This document shows, in pieces, positions 24,414 through 31,997 of a stretch of 32,000 bases of DNA (its first letter is position 1; the number at the start of each line of letters is the position of its first letter). The notes under the pieces were generated by a model. It searched no databases and was not told the DNA's origin. It saw only the letters and a list, made by a program, of their open reading frames with translations. The stretch comes from Candidatus Harpocratesius repetitus (GTDB lineage: Archaea > Asgardarchaeota > Lokiarchaeia > Sigyniarchaeales > Promethearchaeaceae). The stretch spans positions 1,080,001 through 1,112,000 of the forward strand of contig JAIZWK010000001.1 of the NCBI GenBank assembly GCA_021498095.1, written 5' to 3'. Made by a program: the position numbers and the translations under genes.

Positions 24414-25868
24414 TTATCGATATGCATCAAAACGAGGATTAGGATCGAGTTTTTTCATCATTTCTTGCAATCCTGGTTCAACCCCCTGCATGAACATATA
24501 TCCCTTATTTGGCTCTCTTTTTGTAATTTCTCCACGAAGATTGGTTGTCATAATTTTTCGAACTTCTTCATAATTACGAGTCTGACCTAAAGTCCAAATC
24601 ATTTTTGAGTAAGCTGCAGAAGGTAACATATTTGCACCTTCAATCACACCTCGTGCCAGCATATCTCTACCAGTTTCATATACACGTAGATTGGTAAAAC
24701 CAAATAAAGGTTCAACAACAATCACAACTGGAATTTCTTCTTCTTGGGCTCGTTCCAAAGCATTAAACAAATAAGAACTAACATGACCCAAGCCTGTACC
24801 AATAATAACCATGCCGTGATATTTTTTGTCGATAACAGAATGTATCAAATCTTCATCCATGCCCGGGTAGAAATAGAGCATGGCAACACGTTCATCGATT
24901 TTGTCATTTAACCAAGTATCTTCAATATTCCCTCTTCGCTTAACATCTTGCTTAAGCCAAGTAATATTTTGATTAGCATCGATATAGCCTAAGGGAACGT
25001 CACTCAAAGTGCGAAAGGCATCTCGTCTGCTGGAATGCATCTTCCGGACTCGTGTTCCTCGGTGAATAAGGTTATAGGAGTCACTAGTGTTTCCGTGCAT
25101 AGAAACTACTACTTCGGCTAGATCAGCATGACCCGCAATAGTACTTGCATCAATAATATTCAACGGGCCGTCACTGGAAGGTCTGTCGCTGCTTCGTTGA
25201 GATCCAACACATACAATTGGGCGGGCTAAATCTTGAAACATAAAAGATAGTGCTGAAGCTGTAAAAGCCATTGTATCTGTTCCATGCCCGATAATGACTC
25301 CATCAGCGCCACTCTCAAATTCTTTCATAATTTCACGAGCAGTTTTAACCCAATATTCTGGTTTGAAATTTTCACTTAAGATTCCATAAATTTTTCGAGG
25401 TGTAAGATTACAAATATCCATTAATTCTGGAACGGCTGAAAATAACTCTTCTGGAGTGAATGCGGGCAGAACTGCACCAGTACGATAATCCAACCGACTT
25501 GCAACTGTCCCTCCTGTGCCAAGAAGCGTTACATTGGGTAAATCTGGTTTATATTTTACTTTTACTTCGGGTAACTTGTATTCTCCTTTACGAAAGCCTA
25601 ATTCTTCAATAGTACAATCATCAGTAATTTTTACTCCCACATTATAGCCTGTATCGACTTTGATTACCAAGTAATCTTCTGACGTGTGTTCACTTCGTGG
25701 TAGGATTACTCCTTCATACACTGCATTACCACGAGAAACCTTAACAACACTCCATACACCAACTCCTTCTCGAAGTAATCTTTCTCGGAGTTTGCCACGA
25801 TAACCGGTGGGTTCTTTTTCTATAGAAATATCTTTATTTTTTTGAATTGGTTCTGTCATTTGATTCAC
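24414..25868 (-). CDS. gatD: Glu-tRNA(Gln) amidotransferase subunit D, copy 1
   Basis: N-terminal YEGVILPR...GYNVGV domain, GTGGTVASRLDYRTGAV, HGTDT, GSQRSSDRPSSD and RVRKMHSSRRDAF. The start may be ATG 25859 (GGAGG upstream); the GTG at 25868 overlaps the gatE stop. Confidence 0.95.
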   Translation of the reverse strand: MNQMTEPIQKNKDISIEKEPTGYRGKLRERLLREGVGVWSVVKVSRGNAVYEGVILPRSEHTSEDYLVIKVDTGYNVGVKITDDCTIEELGFRKGEYKLPEVKVKYKPDLPNVTLLGTGGTVASRLDYRTGAVLPAFTPEELFSAVPELMDICNLTPRKIYGILSENFKPEYWVKTAREIMKEFESGADGVIIGHGTDTMAFTASALSFMFQDLARPIVCVGSQRSSDRPSSDGPLNIIDASTIAGHADLAEVVVSMHGNTSDSYNLIHRGTRVRKMHSSRRDAFRTLSDVPLGYIDANQNITWLKQDVKRRGNIEDTWLNDKIDERVAMLYFYPGMDEDLIHSVIDKKYHGMVIIGTGLGHVSSYLFNALERAQEEEIPVVIVVEPLFGFTNLRVYETGRDMLARGVIEGANMLPSAAYSKMIWTLGQTRNYEEVRKIMTTNLRGEITKREPNKGYMFMQGVEPGLQEMMKKLDPNPRFDAYR

Positions 25869-27886
25869 ATTCCTCCTGTAATTTTTTGATAAACAAAATC
25901 TGCTACCCGTTTCCCTGATATTGCATGATTAATTTTCCTCATAATCAAACCGGTTATTTGATTACATTGATATTGTAAATCATCAACACTTATCTTTACA
26001 GATTCTCCTTTTTTTGTATCTGAGTTGGTATTTTGGATTTGATATTTTCTTGATTTTCGCTGAAATGCATTAAAGGCCTCAAGTGCGTAAGCATATTCCT
26101 GTTCTAATTGGTTTTTTAATTGATTTTCATCGATTTTCTTTGCTCCAAAGCTGTCTAAAATTTGATTGAGCGAGAAAGTGGGGTGCTTGAGGGTAGAAAT
26201 AACTAAATCTTGTAAAAGTGCCCAATCATAGCGCTGATTTTGGGCCATTAACAATAATTCTGTTATTTTTTCATTCGAAAGCTTAAGTACATCAATTCCA
26301 TCCCGTTTTAATCCTAAAAGCGTCTCTTCTAAGAAGTGATAGACTCGTTTAGGTGGGATATGATGAAGATTCACCAAACGTTCAAATAATTCTATTCGTT
26401 CATGGCGGATTAATTCTGTCAACTGGTTAAATGTAATTCCATCTTTTCCACAATATTCTTTTTCATATTCCCAAGGGCGTTTTCTGACTTTGGAAGCCAA
26501 TTTTTCAATTGCATCCATGTCCATATCAAGGACTGGAGTATCTGTATCAGGATATAATCTTTCTTTTCCATGGATTACACGTAGAAATTCAGAATTTCCG
26601 TTGGGAAGTGCTTTTCGGGTCTCTTGGGGAACTCCATCAAATGCCATTTTAATACGTTCAATTACTTTTTTCATTGCATGAATTGTCCATTTTTGAGATC
26701 CTAAAGCGATCACATATGCATCATTTCCGCCGCATCCAAGAGTTTGAGTAATTTCATTATGTAATGAATCCGTGATACGTTGTTTAAAGTAATTATCTTC
26801 TGAAATGAAATTTGATTCAATCGCATCGGAGTGAAAGAGGTGTTTGATAGGGACTCCACTAATTAGCGATGCCTTTTCTAATATATCTTGGCCAAAATCT
26901 TTTCCTGGTTGTTCTTCTCTTCCCAAAATACCTTGAAGTTTGGGTAATCTAATTCCCATTATGATTGCCTTCTCTGGTATATCTGAAAAAAGATGGCTTA
27001 TATCTAAATATGTATGTTCAAAATCTTCTTTATGAAGTCCCCTTTGCTTTAATTCTTGAGCAATTTGTATAAGTGTATCTTGCCTGCAAATTTCATGACG
27101 GCATAATCTATCAAAATTTTCTAAATCTTGCACACCTTTCAATTCTACTCGGTCTCCCCCTTTAATACTGATATTTACATCTTGTCGGGCAGAACCAATT
27201 CCACGTCGTCCAATACCACTCAATCGCAAGATTAAACCTATAGTTTTAGCAGTTTTAATTAATTCTTCAGGGGTCGAAACATCCAAATAATCAGTAATTA
27301 CTTCTACTAATGGGATTCCTAATCGATCAAGGTTATAATAAACTGTTCGACCATTATTTTCAGTGCGAATTTTTCGAGCACTGTCTTCTTCAACTGTTAA
27401 ATTTGTGATTTTAATCTTTTTTCCATCAACCATTACCCATCCATCTCGGGCTACAATGGTTGTTCGTTGAAATCCAGTGGTAATACTTCCATCTAGATAC
27501 TGCTTCCGTGCAAAAATTATTTCATCTACCAATGCTTGACAATTTAACCAATGGGCTAATTCATAGCCACTCATTAAGGCTTCTTCATCGGGGTGCATAG
27601 GTGGTTGCTCATCTTGTTCATAGATGCAATCGCATTTTTCAAAAGCATGATATATAACCCGATAACCTTTTTCATATTCAATCAGCATTCCGGGGTCAAA
27701 ATCGCCCATTTCACCCAATACTGGTCTGAAATAGCGTTCAAATCGGTAATCTGGTGGAGTGGCGTTGGAAACCATGATTGGGGGGCAATGGCAAAAGAGT
27801 TTTCGTCGGGCATTGATTTGGTGATGAATTTCGAGTCCGGCATGAAAACCAATTTTAGTAAAATCAATTTTAGTTGGATCAAGCAT
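25865..27886 (-). CDS. gatE: Glu-tRNA(Gln) amidotransferase subunit E, copy 1 (divergent)
   Basis: GLEIH, KLFCHCP, DGSITTGFQRT, EEDSAR, DRLGIPLVE, RQDVNISIKGGDRVELKGVQ, insertion (GAD) domain, and RLYPDTD. Confidence 0.92.
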   Translation of the reverse strand: MLDPTKIDFTKIGFHAGLEIHHQINARRKLFCHCPPIMVSNATPPDYRFERYFRPVLGEMGDFDPGMLIEYEKGYRVIYHAFEKCDCIYEQDEQPPMHPDEEALMSGYELAHWLNCQALVDEIIFARKQYLDGSITTGFQRTTIVARDGWVMVDGKKIKITNLTVEEDSARKIRTENNGRTVYYNLDRLGIPLVEVITDYLDVSTPEELIKTAKTIGLILRLSGIGRRGIGSARQDVNISIKGGDRVELKGVQDLENFDRLCRHEICRQDTLIQIAQELKQRGLHKEDFEHTYLDISHLFSDIPEKAIIMGIRLPKLQGILGREEQPGKDFGQDILEKASLISGVPIKHLFHSDAIESNFISEDNYFKQRITDSLHNEITQTLGCGGNDAYVIALGSQKWTIHAMKKVIERIKMAFDGVPQETRKALPNGNSEFLRVIHGKERLYPDTDTPVLDMDMDAIEKLASKVRKRPWEYEKEYCGKDGITFNQLTELIRHERIELFERLVNLHHIPPKRVYHFLEETLLGLKRDGIDVLKLSNEKITELLLMAQNQRYDWALLQDLVISTLKHPTFSLNQILDSFGAKKIDENQLKNQLEQEYAYALEAFNAFQRKSRKYQIQNTNSDTKKGESVKISVDDLQYQCNQITGLIMRKINHAISGKRVADFVYQKITGGM

Positions 27887-28032: not shown

Positions 28033-28443
28033 TTAAAGTGCTTGGAAATTCTTGAATTTAATATCGATTAGTTGATTGACTTTTTCTTCAATTTTCTTAG
28101 TATCAAAATTTGAAATATTCAATTGGGCTTTATTTTCTATATAAAGAGTGGTTGCAATCTCTCGTATAGACTTAATTTTGAACTCTCCCTTTAGATAAAA
28201 TACAAAATAGATTGATTTTTCAGCAAAAAAAAGATCTTTCGCAATTACAACCATGTATGTCAAATTTTCTCCCGAACCGAAAGTAATTGTTGCAATATCT
28301 TGCTTGAAAAGCTTTCTTCCCAGACTTCCAACCGCTGATACCATTCCACTCAGAAGAACAGCGTTAATTTCAATAAAACCTGCAAATGAACGAGTATAAA
28401 AGGGAAATCCTTGTGAATCACAAATTTGTATGCACAAAATCAT
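28033..28443 (-). CDS. Longin/roadblock-like small domain protein (Asgard type)
   Basis: 136 aa: N-terminal beta-hairpin ILCIQICDSQGFPFYTRSF, then helix LLSGMVSAVGSLGRKLF, the pattern typical of Asgard longin-like domains. Pattern recognition only. Confidence 0.6.
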   Translation of the reverse strand: MILCIQICDSQGFPFYTRSFAGFIEINAVLLSGMVSAVGSLGRKLFKQDIATITFGSGENLTYMVVIAKDLFFAEKSIYFVFYLKGEFKIKSIREIATTLYIENKAQLNISNFDTKKIEEKVNQLIDIKFKNFQAL

Positions 28444-28554: not shown

Positions 28555-30606
28555 ATGGGAAAAAGCATTGATTATAACGCGGTTGGGTTAAAATGTGGTA
28601 TTGAAATCCACCAACAGCTCGATTCTGCTACAAAACTCTTCTGTGCTTGTCCAAATCAACTTCAAGGTACGCGCGAACCTGATTTTCGAATTTTACGAAA
28701 GCAACGACCTGTTTTAGGGGAAGAAGGAAAATTCGATGAAGGTATGTTATCTGAATTTCTTAAGGGCGGTTCTGTCATTTATGAAGGCTATTATGATTGT
28801 ACGTGTACCTATGAATTGGATGAGACACCTCCTTTTAAATGTGATGAAGAGTGTATTGATATTGCGCTTGAGATTTGCGCTTTATTTAAAATGAATATTG
28901 TGCGTGAAATGCATGTTTGTCGGAAAAATTATGTTGACGGAAGTGTTCCTGCTGGATTTCAGAGAACTATGGAAATAGGTTATGATGGTAATCTGGATCT
29001 AAAAAATGGAAAAAAAATTGGAATTGAAAACATTTTTTTGGAAGAAGATGCAGCAAGGCGAATAAAAACACAAGGAAAGACTTCTTATTTTCGCGTTGAT
29101 AGATTAGGTATTCCTTTAGTGGAAATTACTACTACTCCTGATATACATGATCCAGAAGAAGCGAAAGAAACAGCTTATCGAATTGGGTTATTGCTGAGAT
29201 CGACGAATAAGGTCAAACGAATTATTGGGTCAACACGCCAAGATATTAATGTTTCAATTGCAGGTGGAGAACGAATTGAGATTAAAGGAGTGCAAAAATT
29301 GGATTGGATCCCAGAACTGATTCACAATGAAGTAATTCGTCAGCAAAAATTAATCGACATTAAGAATATTCTCAATCAAAAATCAATTTCACCAGATGAT
29401 ATTAGACGAGATCCTGTTGATTTAACGAAAATCTTCCAAAAAACAGAATGTCGGTTTGTAAAAGCTGGTATTAAACGAAAAGAAAAGTTCGTTGGTATGA
29501 AAATACCCGGATTTCATGGTATTTTTGGAACAGAGGTGCTTCCTAATCGAAGATTTGGGACAGAAGTTGCAGATAAAGTCAAAGTAATTGCAGGCTTGAA
29601 AGGATTAATTCATTCTGATGAAAATTTACTGGAGAAATATAATTTTTCACCGGAAGAAATCGCTCAAACTCGTCAAAAATTGAATATTCAAAACGATGAT
29701 CTTTTTATTTTATTACTGGCTTCAGGACAGGCATTAGAAACTGCTTTAGATGTAATCGTCGAAAGGTGTAAACAGGCATTCATTGGTGTGCCTGAAGAAA
29801 CACGACAAGCTAAAGAAGATGGGACTCATGTATTTTTACGGGAGTTGGGTGGTGAAAAGCGATTATATCCAGATACCGACACACCTCCTATCCTACTTTC
29901 AGAAGATCGCATAAAAAATATTAAAGAAAACATAGGGCCATATCCATGGGATATTATTGATGAATATGCGAAAAAGTATAATTTAGATCCTTTTCTGGTT
30001 GAAGATCTGATTATGGATGGAAAAATGGCTCTATTTAATGAGCTTATCGCAAAATATCCTGAAAATCCTATGTTAGTCATTCGGACAATTACTGATATGC
30101 TTAAAGTACTGCATAGGGAAGAAAAAAATATAAATACGCTCAAACCTTCGCATTTTCATGAATTATTTGCTGGTCTAAAGCAAGGAATTATTGCTAAAGA
30201 GGCAATGTTAGGTGTTTTACGAATTTGGACCGATTTTCCAGAAATTTCTCTAAAACAAGCAAAGAAAAAAATGGGAATAAAAACTACGGATTTAACTAAG
30301 TTAGATGGTATTATTGATGAGCTAGTTCAAAAAAATATGGAACTCATTAAGACAAGAGGCCGAGGTGCAATTGGGCCCTTAATGGGAGATCTAATGAAGA
30401 TTGTTGGGAGAGGTGCTGTTGATGGTAAGGTTCTATCTTCTAAATTGGCTCAAGCTATTGGTAAATTGATTTCCCAAGGAAACTCTACATCAGCAAATGA
30501 GAAAACAAAAAAGAAACAAAAAACAAAAAAACCTACAAAAAAAATTTCTCAATCCCCAAAAAATAACCCAAAGAAAACCACAAAAACAATTAAAGGTGAA
30601 AAATAA
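28555..30606 (+). CDS. gatE: Glu-tRNA(Gln) amidotransferase subunit E, copy 2 (closer to canonical, Lys-rich tail)
   Basis: GLKCGIEIHQQL, KLFCACP, DGSVPAGFQRT, EEDAAR, DRLGIPLVEITT, RQDINVSIAGGERIEIKGVQ, RRFGTEVAD, RLYPDTD, and a Yqey-like GPLMGDLMK...VDGK. Confidence 0.95.
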   Translation: MGKSIDYNAVGLKCGIEIHQQLDSATKLFCACPNQLQGTREPDFRILRKQRPVLGEEGKFDEGMLSEFLKGGSVIYEGYYDCTCTYELDETPPFKCDEECIDIALEICALFKMNIVREMHVCRKNYVDGSVPAGFQRTMEIGYDGNLDLKNGKKIGIENIFLEEDAARRIKTQGKTSYFRVDRLGIPLVEITTTPDIHDPEEAKETAYRIGLLLRSTNKVKRIIGSTRQDINVSIAGGERIEIKGVQKLDWIPELIHNEVIRQQKLIDIKNILNQKSISPDDIRRDPVDLTKIFQKTECRFVKAGIKRKEKFVGMKIPGFHGIFGTEVLPNRRFGTEVADKVKVIAGLKGLIHSDENLLEKYNFSPEEIAQTRQKLNIQNDDLFILLLASGQALETALDVIVERCKQAFIGVPEETRQAKEDGTHVFLRELGGEKRLYPDTDTPPILLSEDRIKNIKENIGPYPWDIIDEYAKKYNLDPFLVEDLIMDGKMALFNELIAKYPENPMLVIRTITDMLKVLHREEKNINTLKPSHFHELFAGLKQGIIAKEAMLGVLRIWTDFPEISLKQAKKKMGIKTTDLTKLDGIIDELVQKNMELIKTRGRGAIGPLMGDLMKIVGRGAVDGKVLSSKLAQAIGKLISQGNSTSANEKTKKKQKTKKPTKKISQSPKNNPKKTTKTIKGEK

Positions 30607-31997
30607 TGGTAGAAGAACAAGATATGAAGGATTACAGTGGATATAAACCCAATTCTGTTGCAATTATGAAGAAATTTGGTGTGAAATTATGGTATAAAAT
30701 CGAAATATTGTCTTCTAAAGGAACTGTTCAAGGTGTTGTCCTCCCCCGTAATAAATTTGCACCAGATGGATTTGTGGAGATTAAGCTTAAAAATGGTTAT
30801 AATATTGGGGTTCCTCTGGATAAAAATACTAAAATTAAGGTTATTGGTGAAGTTCCTCCCATGAAAGTTTCATTTGATCAACATATTCAACCAAAAAACA
30901 AAAATCTTCCAACTGTGTGTCTTTTAGGTACAGGGGGAACAATTGCTTCTCGATTGGATTACACAACAGGAGCAGTTATTCCAGCCTTTGAACCTGGGGA
31001 ATTATTTACCGCTGTCCCAGAACTGGCAAAAATTAGCAATATTGAAACTGAAGTTGTTTATCAACTCCTTTCTGAAAATCTTACACCCCAGAACTGGCTC
31101 GAATTAGCGAAAAAAATAGTAGAATTAGCGAAAACTAATATTGATGGTATTGTTATTGCCCATGGAACAGATACACTAAGTTATGCTTCTGCCGCTCTTT
31201 CTTTTCTTTTGAAAAATGTCTCAATTCCAATAGTTTTGGTTGGTTCTCAACGATCAAGTGATCGACCATCTTCTGATGCAGCTTTAAATTTAATTCATGC
31301 AGTTACTATTGCCAGTAAAGCAAATATTGGAGAAGTTGTTGTCTGTATGATGGGTTCCTCAGCACACGATTATGGATTCATTCATCGAGGTACAAGAGTG
31401 AGAAAAATGCATTCTTCTGCAAGACACACCTTTAGATCTATTGGAATTACACCTTTAGGTATGATCCGAGACGATGAAATTAAATACTTTTCTACAGAAA
31501 TCAAGCCAAGAGATTCAAAAAATCGTAAAAAAATGGAATGTTGGTCATCAATTGAAGAAAAAGTGGCTCTTATTTATTCCTATCCTGGAATGAAGGGCGA
31601 TATTCTTGATTTTTACTTGAATTCAGGATATAAAGGCATAGTATTTGCTGGTTCAGGGCTTGGACATTTACCAAAGACAATGTATCCTGCTTTGAAACGA
31701 GCATATGATGCAAAGATTCCGATATTGATGACTGTTCAAACGCTTTGGGGGTATACTGGAATGGATGTCTATGAAAGTGGCCGAGAATTGCAAGATTTAG
31801 GTGTTATTCCTGGAAAGAATATGCTCCCTGAAGTAGCATTTACCAAAATGTGTTGGGCATTAGGTAATTTCAATGAATATGAGAAGATTAGAGAAGTATT
31901 AACAACCAATATTGCTGGTGAAATTACATCAGGAGAATCAATGAATGGTTTTCAAATTTTTCAAGGCGTAGAACACACAATTTCACCCAAAGAATAA
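30606..31997 (+). CDS. gatD: Glu-tRNA(Gln) amidotransferase subunit D, copy 2
   Basis: GYNIGV, GTGGTIASRLDYTTGAV, HGTDT, GSQRSSDRPSSD and RVRKMHSS. TAATG stop/start overlap with gatE2. Confidence 0.95.
   Translation: MVEEQDMKDYSGYKPNSVAIMKKFGVKLWYKIEILSSKGTVQGVVLPRNKFAPDGFVEIKLKNGYNIGVPLDKNTKIKVIGEVPPMKVSFDQHIQPKNKNLPTVCLLGTGGTIASRLDYTTGAVIPAFEPGELFTAVPELAKISNIETEVVYQLLSENLTPQNWLELAKKIVELAKTNIDGIVIAHGTDTLSYASAALSFLLKNVSIPIVLVGSQRSSDRPSSDAALNLIHAVTIASKANIGEVVVCMMGSSAHDYGFIHRGTRVRKMHSSARHTFRSIGITPLGMIRDDEIKYFSTEIKPRDSKNRKKMECWSSIEEKVALIYSYPGMKGDILDFYLNSGYKGIVFAGSGLGHLPKTMYPALKRAYDAKIPILMTVQTLWGYTGMDVYESGRELQDLGVIPGKNMLPEVAFTKMCWALGNFNEYEKIREVLTTNIAGEITSGESMNGFQIFQGVEHTISPKE

Follow-up and report, generated by a model that had tools for sequence, protein, structure and literature searches.

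A conserved Asgard subfamily of GatDE amidotransferases with a rebuilt GatE insertion domain

Introduction

Why does one archaeal genome keep two GatDE amidotransferases side by side, and what does it mean that their GatE subunits differ in the insertion domain? This question is raised by a 32,000-nucleotide stretch (G000:C1:1080001-1112000, hereafter the window, meaning the whole stretch analysed) of a single-contig genome of 4.36 Mb and ~30% GC, whose closest named relative is Candidatus Harpocratesius (Asgard archaea, Loki group). The window contains two divergently transcribed operons, gatE1-gatD1 and gatE2-gatD2. Until now, GatDE has been regarded as one and the same enzyme throughout the archaea, devoted to tRNA(Gln). 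It has been proposed that its insertion domain makes it pair with glutamyl-tRNA synthetase (GluRS) and not with aspartyl-tRNA synthetase (AspRS). The GatE-specific insertion was predicted to clash with the non-discriminating AspRS (modelling of Oshikane 2006, via Rampias 2010, PMC2943598, and Sheppard 2008, PMC2330236), a proposed block to AspRS co-assembly that the original prediction for this locus had cited correctly. Together with the catalytic domain, the insertion forms a pocket predicted to dock the non-discriminating GluRS (PMC2943598, PMC2330236), and GatDE binds GluRS without tRNA but does not bind the non-discriminating AspRS (Rampias 2010, PMC2943598).

Here we describe the GatE1 type (E1-type) and its cognate GatD as a distinct, conserved Asgard GatDE subfamily. 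It is apparently undescribed, as no paper on it was found in the literature searched. With a probability of roughly 0.45, we read the E1-type as an active amidotransferase that still uses Glu-tRNA(Gln) as its substrate and whose docking surface for GluRS is altered.

Results

The insertion domain of GatE1 is rebuilt

The segment 26640-27020 on the minus strand encodes residues ~289-416 of GatE1. They form part of the AspRS-like (GAD) domain, the insertion that splits the catalytic cradle in two. Three changes relative to GatE2 had been proposed for this domain, and BLASTP alignment bears out each of them. GatE1 has lost nine residues (a 9-residue gap after ISHLF), presents KDFGQDILE opposite the basic RRFGTEVAD of GatE2, and carries several small insertions after HSD, with ~10-13 extra residues. 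Identity between the two proteins is 37% overall and 25% over the GAD stretch. Relative to the solved GatE structures, the deletion site of GatE1 is 9 residues shorter than in P. abyssi (1ZQ1) and 5 residues shorter than in M. thermautotrophicus (2D6F), and the stretch after FH(S/T/I)D is 10 residues longer. The motif QPGKDFGQD of GatE1 corresponds to LPNRRFGTE in GatE2 and to QPGRRLGTE in both solved GatEs.

AlphaFold models of the two proteins (pLDDT, the predicted local confidence, of 82.8 for GatE1 and 88.5 for GatE2) locate these changes on the fold. The deleted stretch is an alpha-helix in the GatE2 model (residues 300-307), which lies inside the basic stretch RFVKAGIKRKEK and sits between the first two GAD strands; the GatE1 model contains no such helix, and its residues 357-372 form a loop without regular secondary structure. 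Residues 285-419 of GatE1 align with the GAD domain of E. coli AspRS (1c0a_A 285-418) with a Z score of 12.1 and a root-mean-square deviation of 2.8 Å over 113 residues. As modelled, the GAD fold is retained in GatE1 as a variant without one helix. The Pfam GAD profile (PF02938) gave no match to the isolated GatE1 domain even at E<=10, and the isolated GatE2 domain passes it with 25.8 bits against a gathering cut-off of 23.4. We considered whether the GAD domain of GatE1 is degenerate or lost, and rejected this, because the fold is kept and the domain is conserved within the clade described below.

The rebuilt domain marks a deep Asgard clade

GatE1 has many homologues, at 45-89% identity, in metagenome genomes of the Loki group and of Heimdall type. 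In a tree and alignment of 205 GatE sequences (E1 n=45, E2 n=30, canonical n=103 and S27 n=27 representatives), the E1-type sequences form a monophyletic clade (support 1.0), whose stem measures 0.68 substitutions per site. The E1 clade falls outside the clade of GatE2, which itself lies within canonical GatE. Consistent with the tree, GatE1 is 58-61% identical to proteins of the family labelled f30, compared with the 37% to its neighbour GatE2. The framing of the pair as divergence after a local duplication is therefore not borne out: GatE1 is no recent copy of GatE2, and a recent local duplication followed by divergence was rejected because E1 clusters with Heimdall-type sequences and GatE2 with canonical GatE.

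The first GAD segment has 12 residues (range 10-14) in all 45 E1 members versus 21 in the E2, canonical and S27 sets. Position 330 is Asp in 44 of the 45, compared with Arg in 28/30 E2 and 77/103 canonical sequences, and the segment after HSD has a median of 38 residues (range 20-53) versus 24-25 in the other clades. Within the E1 clade, E324, Q326, P327 and K329 are invariant, and D330, F331 and G332 are at least 90% conserved. The net charge of the deletion segment is +1 in E1 versus +4/+5 in the other clades, and that of the motif segment is -3 versus 0/+1 elsewhere, so that the local charge drops by ~7 units over two adjacent GAD segments. GAD identity within the clade is 0.49 for E1 and 0.50 for E2; this equality argues that the E1 form of the domain is under purifying selection and is not decaying. 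The branch of the clade found in family f26 has the helix deletion, carries K-T or K-L in place of K-D and lacks the insertion after HSD, which indicates that the deletion came first. Only 1/66 E1-clade members matches PF02938 at E<=0.01, and precomputed PF02938 annotation is present on none of 120 E1-type database matches, compared with most E2-type matches.

The original prediction had supposed that such remodelling could permit a different synthetase partner. Here the change itself stands, as it is real and conserved, and the removal of the basic helix and the Arg from the GAD domain makes a changed protein or RNA interface plausible; for the new partner, nothing that we found shows one.

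The GatEs of families f13, f5 and f25 (39-45% identity) were also considered as E1-type and were rejected, as their GAD domain is canonical. A second long-branched GatE clade, S27 (P0257-P0377, 27 representatives), has a stem of 0.48 and is a weak sister of the E1 clade (support 0.75); both are long-branched, and their grouping may be long-branch attraction. The record of one S27 protein (P0258) gives a Deltaproteobacteria metagenome-assembled genome (MAG) as its source; this may point to GatDE-like genes in bacteria, or to mis-binning.

Catalytic and tRNA-reading parts of GatE1

All four GatE and GatD proteins of the window score above the NCBIfam GatE or GatD cut-offs, GatE1 narrowly. GatE1 reaches 484.7 bits on NF003107 (cut-off 456) and 416.1 bits on TIGR00134 (cut-off 319.55), and GatE2 reaches 656.6 and 574.9 bits on the same models. 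GatE1 stays below the GatB cut-offs (best GatB model 124.8 bits versus a cut-off of 338) and contains the insertion domain. The catalytic residues H21, E166/E167/D168, E195, R234-Q235-D236-N238 and K250 of GatE1 are invariant across the E1 clade, and the canonical GatE alignment likewise shows no variation at H, EED, E, RQDxN and K. GatD1 reaches 520 bits on TIGR02153, and its TGGT, HGTDT and RKMH motifs are intact. Judged by this residue set, GatD1E1 would be catalytically competent.

The two subunits also travel together. Every E1-type gatE examined, in five other genomes, is followed by a D1-type gatD. The D1-type GatDs are 57-66% identical to GatD1 and 30-40% identical to GatD2, and GatD1 and GatD2 share 43% identity.

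The helical and tail domains of E1 are more diverged from canonical GatE than the GAD domain is. Pfam recognises GatB_N alone in GatE1 (1.8e-43), compared with GatB_N, GAD and GatB_Yqey in GatE2. The tail domain has an identity of 0.25 within the E1 clade, and the Pfam tail profile GatB_Yqey matches 27/66 clade members, with no match in GatE1 (P0001) itself. The tail region of the GatE1 model contains helices, and the model can be aligned with full-length GatB chains. The poorly conserved tail, the long stem branch of the clade and the retention of E1 in genomes that have both glutaminyl-tRNA synthetase (GlnRS) and asparaginyl-tRNA synthetase (AsnRS) would fit an enzyme that no longer amidates either tRNA(Gln) or tRNA(Asn) and whose substrate is a different aminoacyl-tRNA or no tRNA at all. 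We give this explanation little credence, as the full set of kinase/transamidase residues, the GatD glutaminase motifs and, in the model, the overall four-domain architecture are kept, and tRNA(Gln) retains its A1-U72 pair (see below).

Distribution of E1-type GatE and of the routes to Gln-tRNA(Gln)

Among 301 Asgard genomes with a completeness of at least 80%, the E1-type GatE occurs in 47, distributed over five families (f1, to which the genome of the window belongs, 6; f30, 8; f10, 25; f26, 7; f27, 1). A second GatE match is present in the E1-bearing genomes of f1 and f30, in the one E1-bearing f27 genome (G112) and in three further genomes (G115, G125 and G263); the second copy was confirmed directly in f1 and in G224. 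In f10, the E1-type is usually the sole GatE, and in the closed f10 genomes G064 and G101 it is the sole gene of the GatB/GatE family. Genus g55 of family f26 contains species with either E1-type or canonical GatE, both alongside GlnRS, which argues that either type can fill one and the same core role.

A full-length GlnRS was found in 39 of the 301 genomes, among them G043, G064, G101, G121 and G224 (630-750 bits on TIGR00440, cut-off 426), and only in three families (f10, 21/27; f26, 11/19; f30, 7/9), with GlnRS fragments at contig ends in two further f10 genomes. In one genome (G121), two tRNA(Gln) genes lie ~600 nucleotides from glnS. According to a 2022 review (PMC9499178), GlnRS is absent from all archaea; a brief mention of GlnRS in Hodarchaeales and Kariarchaeaceae is made in one 2024 preprint. 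Counting canonical GatDE or GlnRS as a second route to Gln-tRNA(Gln), 42 of the 47 E1-bearing genomes have one, two of these 42 by GlnRS fragments only. The remaining five comprise three MAGs (80-92% complete) with GluRS only and two in which neither GluRS nor GlnRS was detected. GAD remodelling in single-copy GatEs, which the original prediction had named beforehand as evidence against itself, thus does occur, for example in the closed genomes G064 and G101, but the presence of GlnRS there confounds the comparison.

In six f23 relatives (G094, G107, G082, G099, G066 and G075), the GatE matches contain in-frame TAG and/or TAA codons, which suggests stop-codon recoding in that lineage.

GatB loss and asparagine supply

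GatB was found in none of the 47 E1-bearing genomes. Family f1 is cleanly split, with E1-bearing genomes that lack GatB and E1-lacking genomes (G003, G005, G006 and G008) that have it. This pattern brings in an explanation by which Asp-tRNA(Asn) has replaced or joined the former substrate of GatD1E1. In essence it is the different synthetase partner of the original prediction, for which AspRS is the obvious candidate: a GAD domain that is trimmed and stripped of positive charge would no longer clash with AspRS, and the enzyme would take the GatCAB role where that was lost. The insertion domain is the very element predicted to block AspRS, and the tail domain of E1 is remodelled too, both of which are in line with such a switch. 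If it were true, a GatDE would stand in for GatCAB in Heimdall-type lineages and in some of the Loki group. The complementarity is, however, unspecific. Many E1-less families also lack GatB (0/71 in f12, 0/14 in f17 and 0/9 in f19), so E1 as a specific complement of GatB loss was rejected, and in f1 the loss of GatB coincides also with AsnRS and, where seen, with an AS-AR-type synthetase. The mutual replacement of E1 and canonical GatE within g55 speaks against the switch as well.

The enzymes of asparagine supply bear on the same explanation. The genome that carries the window encodes a single GluRS and an AspRS of archaeal type; AsnRS is present too, as is an archaeal AsnA-like asparagine synthetase, which scores 360.9 bits against a cut-off of 309. 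GlnRS and GatB were not found in this genome; with AsnRS and the AsnA-like synthetase, it has no evident need for a tRNA-dependent asparagine route. The closed genomes G064 and G101 have AsnRS, AspRS, GluRS and GlnRS, with the E1-type GatDE as their sole amidotransferase, and neither AsnB nor AsnA was found in them; searches with the AsnRS and AS-AR models gave no short AS-AR-type protein. In Thermus and Deinococcus, a tRNA-dependent route makes asparagine, and the gene set of G064 and G101 can be likened to theirs. The two organisms are either asparagine auxotrophs or users of an unrecognised, possibly tRNA-dependent, route. A general lack of asparagine synthetase in E1-only genomes was rejected, as at least 7 of 31 f10 genomes encode an AS-AR-type synthetase, which also counts against the switch. 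Weighing these points, we consider a switch or broadening to Asp-tRNA(Asn) unlikely, and slightly less likely still the specific claim that the E1-type GatDE amidates Asp-tRNA(Asn), or has dual Asp/Glu specificity, and supplies tRNA-dependent asparagine synthesis in genomes like G064 and G101.

tRNA identity elements

The A1-U72 pair of tRNA(Gln) is the identity pair read by GatDE. It is kept in all tRNA(Gln) genes examined of E1-bearing genomes, including GlnRS genomes with E1 as the sole GatE. In the genome of the window, tRNA(Asn) has G1-C72 and G73, unlike the A1-U72 of tRNA(Gln). This is a weak point against Asp-tRNA(Asn) as the substrate, since GatCAB-bearing relatives also have G1-C72, which makes the first base pair of tRNA(Asn) uninformative as a test of that reading.

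The two tRNA(Gln) isoacceptors of the genome, CUG and UUG, do not differ in their acceptor stems (A1-U72, A73), and their D-loops follow one pattern. A division of labour with one enzyme per isoacceptor was excluded, as the two tRNAs share their identity elements. With no tRNA to divide, one may think of sub-functionalisation on the same substrate, in which both enzymes make Gln-tRNA(Gln) under different conditions (amide donor, temperature or growth state) or with different expression, and the GAD changes are neutral or compensatory with GatD1. D1 and E1 always occur together and have co-diverged, and in family f1 the E1 and E2 operons are both intact and closely linked (<1 kb to 26 kb apart), as this explanation would have it. 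The GAD changes are, however, discrete, charge-altering and invariant over a deep clade, and resemble a new interface constraint and not drift, so that we regard sub-functionalisation as doubtful.

The tRNA complement was recovered incompletely. Aragorn found 38 tRNAs and Rfam 25; many intron-bearing tRNAs were probably missed, and tRNA(Asp) was not recovered. The tRNA(Gln,UUG) gene (G000:C1:3307938-3308024, L045), with a 14-nucleotide intron in the D-arm, was missed by both and was located by BLAST. The anticodon loops of tRNA(Gln,UUG), CCUUGAC, and tRNA(Glu,UUC), CCUUCAC, would place C, not U, at position 33. Aragorn also reported a tRNA-SeC and, under the label Pyl, a tRNA whose anticodon is CTA.

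Organisation of the locus

The features of the window are collected in Table 1. A 136-residue open reading frame (P0005) lies between gatE1 and gatE2. A counterpart with 59% identity is present at the same place in another species of the same genus (G001), and none was found at six loci of more distant genomes (L036-L042), all with short flanks. Because of this absence at the more distant loci, P0005 does not look like a conserved partner of the E1-type GatDE.

Immediately downstream of gatD2, to the right of the window, lies an AsnRS gene (L004; G000:C1:1112129-1113397, minus strand). AsnRS adjoins gatD2 also in G002 and, at a contig end, in G001, and in the f3 relatives it adjoins gatB instead. 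Genes for amide aminoacyl-tRNA formation therefore share a neighbourhood, with an amidotransferase content that differs by lineage.

Table 1. Features of the two gatE-gatD operons in the window (positions counted from its first nucleotide)
Feature	Position	Strand	Remarks
gatD1 (D1-type GatD, cognate of GatE1)	24414-25868	minus	overlaps gatE1 stop codon
gatE1 (E1-type GatE, P0001)	25865-27886	minus	673 amino acids
AspRS-like (GAD) insertion domain of GatE1	26630-27034	minus	residues 285-419; pLDDT 82-95
Extra loop after HSD in GatE1	26771-26824	minus	residues ~355-372
GatE1 motif EEQPGKDFGQD, charge reversal at 330	26885-26917	minus	residues 324-334
9-residue deletion site of GatE1	26948-26989	minus	residues 300-313, FSDIPEKAIIMGIR
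Open reading frame between gatE1 and gatE2 (P0005)	28033-28443	minus	136 amino acids; without Pfam or NCBIfam match
gatE2 (canonical-type GatE, P0002)	28555-30606	plus	reference for comparison
GAD domain of gatE2	29392-29778	plus	
gatD2 (partner of GatE2)	30606-31997	plus	

Discussion

The explanation that we favour keeps the reaction and changes the docking. The E1-type GatDE would most likely convert Glu-tRNA(Gln) to Gln-tRNA(Gln), using a GAD insertion that has been rebuilt: the basic helix is deleted, Asp stands in place of the conserved Arg, and the majority of members have gained a loop. Such an enzyme would no longer form the canonical tRNA-independent GluRS:GatDE transamidosome, and would either act on released Glu-tRNA(Gln) or dock GluRS in a modified mode. 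A change of this kind may be affordable where the main flux can be carried by canonical GatDE, as in the genome of the window, or by GlnRS, as in the Heimdall-type families. What we infer, from the conserved residues, the domain changes and the distribution described above, is twofold: which substrate is used, and that the docking of GluRS has been lost or altered.

Three observations weigh against this explanation. The E1 and canonical types are kept side by side in four genera of family f1 and in f30, and this joint retention argues against simple redundancy. The three E1-only MAGs without GlnRS, if real, would mean that E1 can be the sole route to Gln-tRNA(Gln), for which an enzyme that works closely with GluRS would be expected. 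Furthermore, from the sequence divergence, the tRNA specificity of the E1-type may also have changed, as the helical and tail domains that read the tRNA (in canonical GatE, the YqeY-like tail reads the D-loop) are more diverged than the GAD domain.

A deep and conserved Asgard subfamily has rebuilt exactly the insertion domain that was proposed to set the pairing with GluRS. The genomes that carry it are a natural experiment in the coexistence of the direct (GlnRS) and the indirect (GluRS plus amidotransferase) routes to Gln-tRNA in archaeal relatives of eukaryotes. GatD1E1 and GatD2E2 of one organism provide a ready pair of enzymes for probing the role of the insertion domain.

Compared with the known archaeal GatDE (2D6F and 1ZQ1), GatE1 as modelled has the same four-part architecture of cradle, GAD insertion, helical domain and probable tail, the same catalytic residues and the same gatE-gatD operon. 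Its model aligns with 2d6f_D at a Z score of 37.7 and with 1ZQ1 at 33.2, and it shares ~34% identity with the GatE chains of known structure and 35-38% with the majority of canonical GatEs in the database search. It differs from them in the absence of the basic helix that separates GAD strands one and two, in KDFGxD/E in place of RR(F/L)GTE, in the extra loop after HSD, in GAD and YqeY domains that Pfam does not detect, and in its place in a separate, long-branched clade. The neighbouring GatE2/GatD2 is encoded by an operon of like kind and both enzymes look catalytically intact; in contrast to GatE1, GatE2 keeps the canonical GAD domain and tail. With the GAD domain of the bacterial-type AspRS (1C0A), GatE1 shares the fold, but identity is 12%, there is no profile match, and the host protein is another. 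GatB of GatCAB has a homologous cradle and a probably homologous tail (Z ~27); it lacks the insertion domain and works with the amidase GatA, whereas GatE1 keeps the insertion and is partnered by the asparaginase-like GatD.

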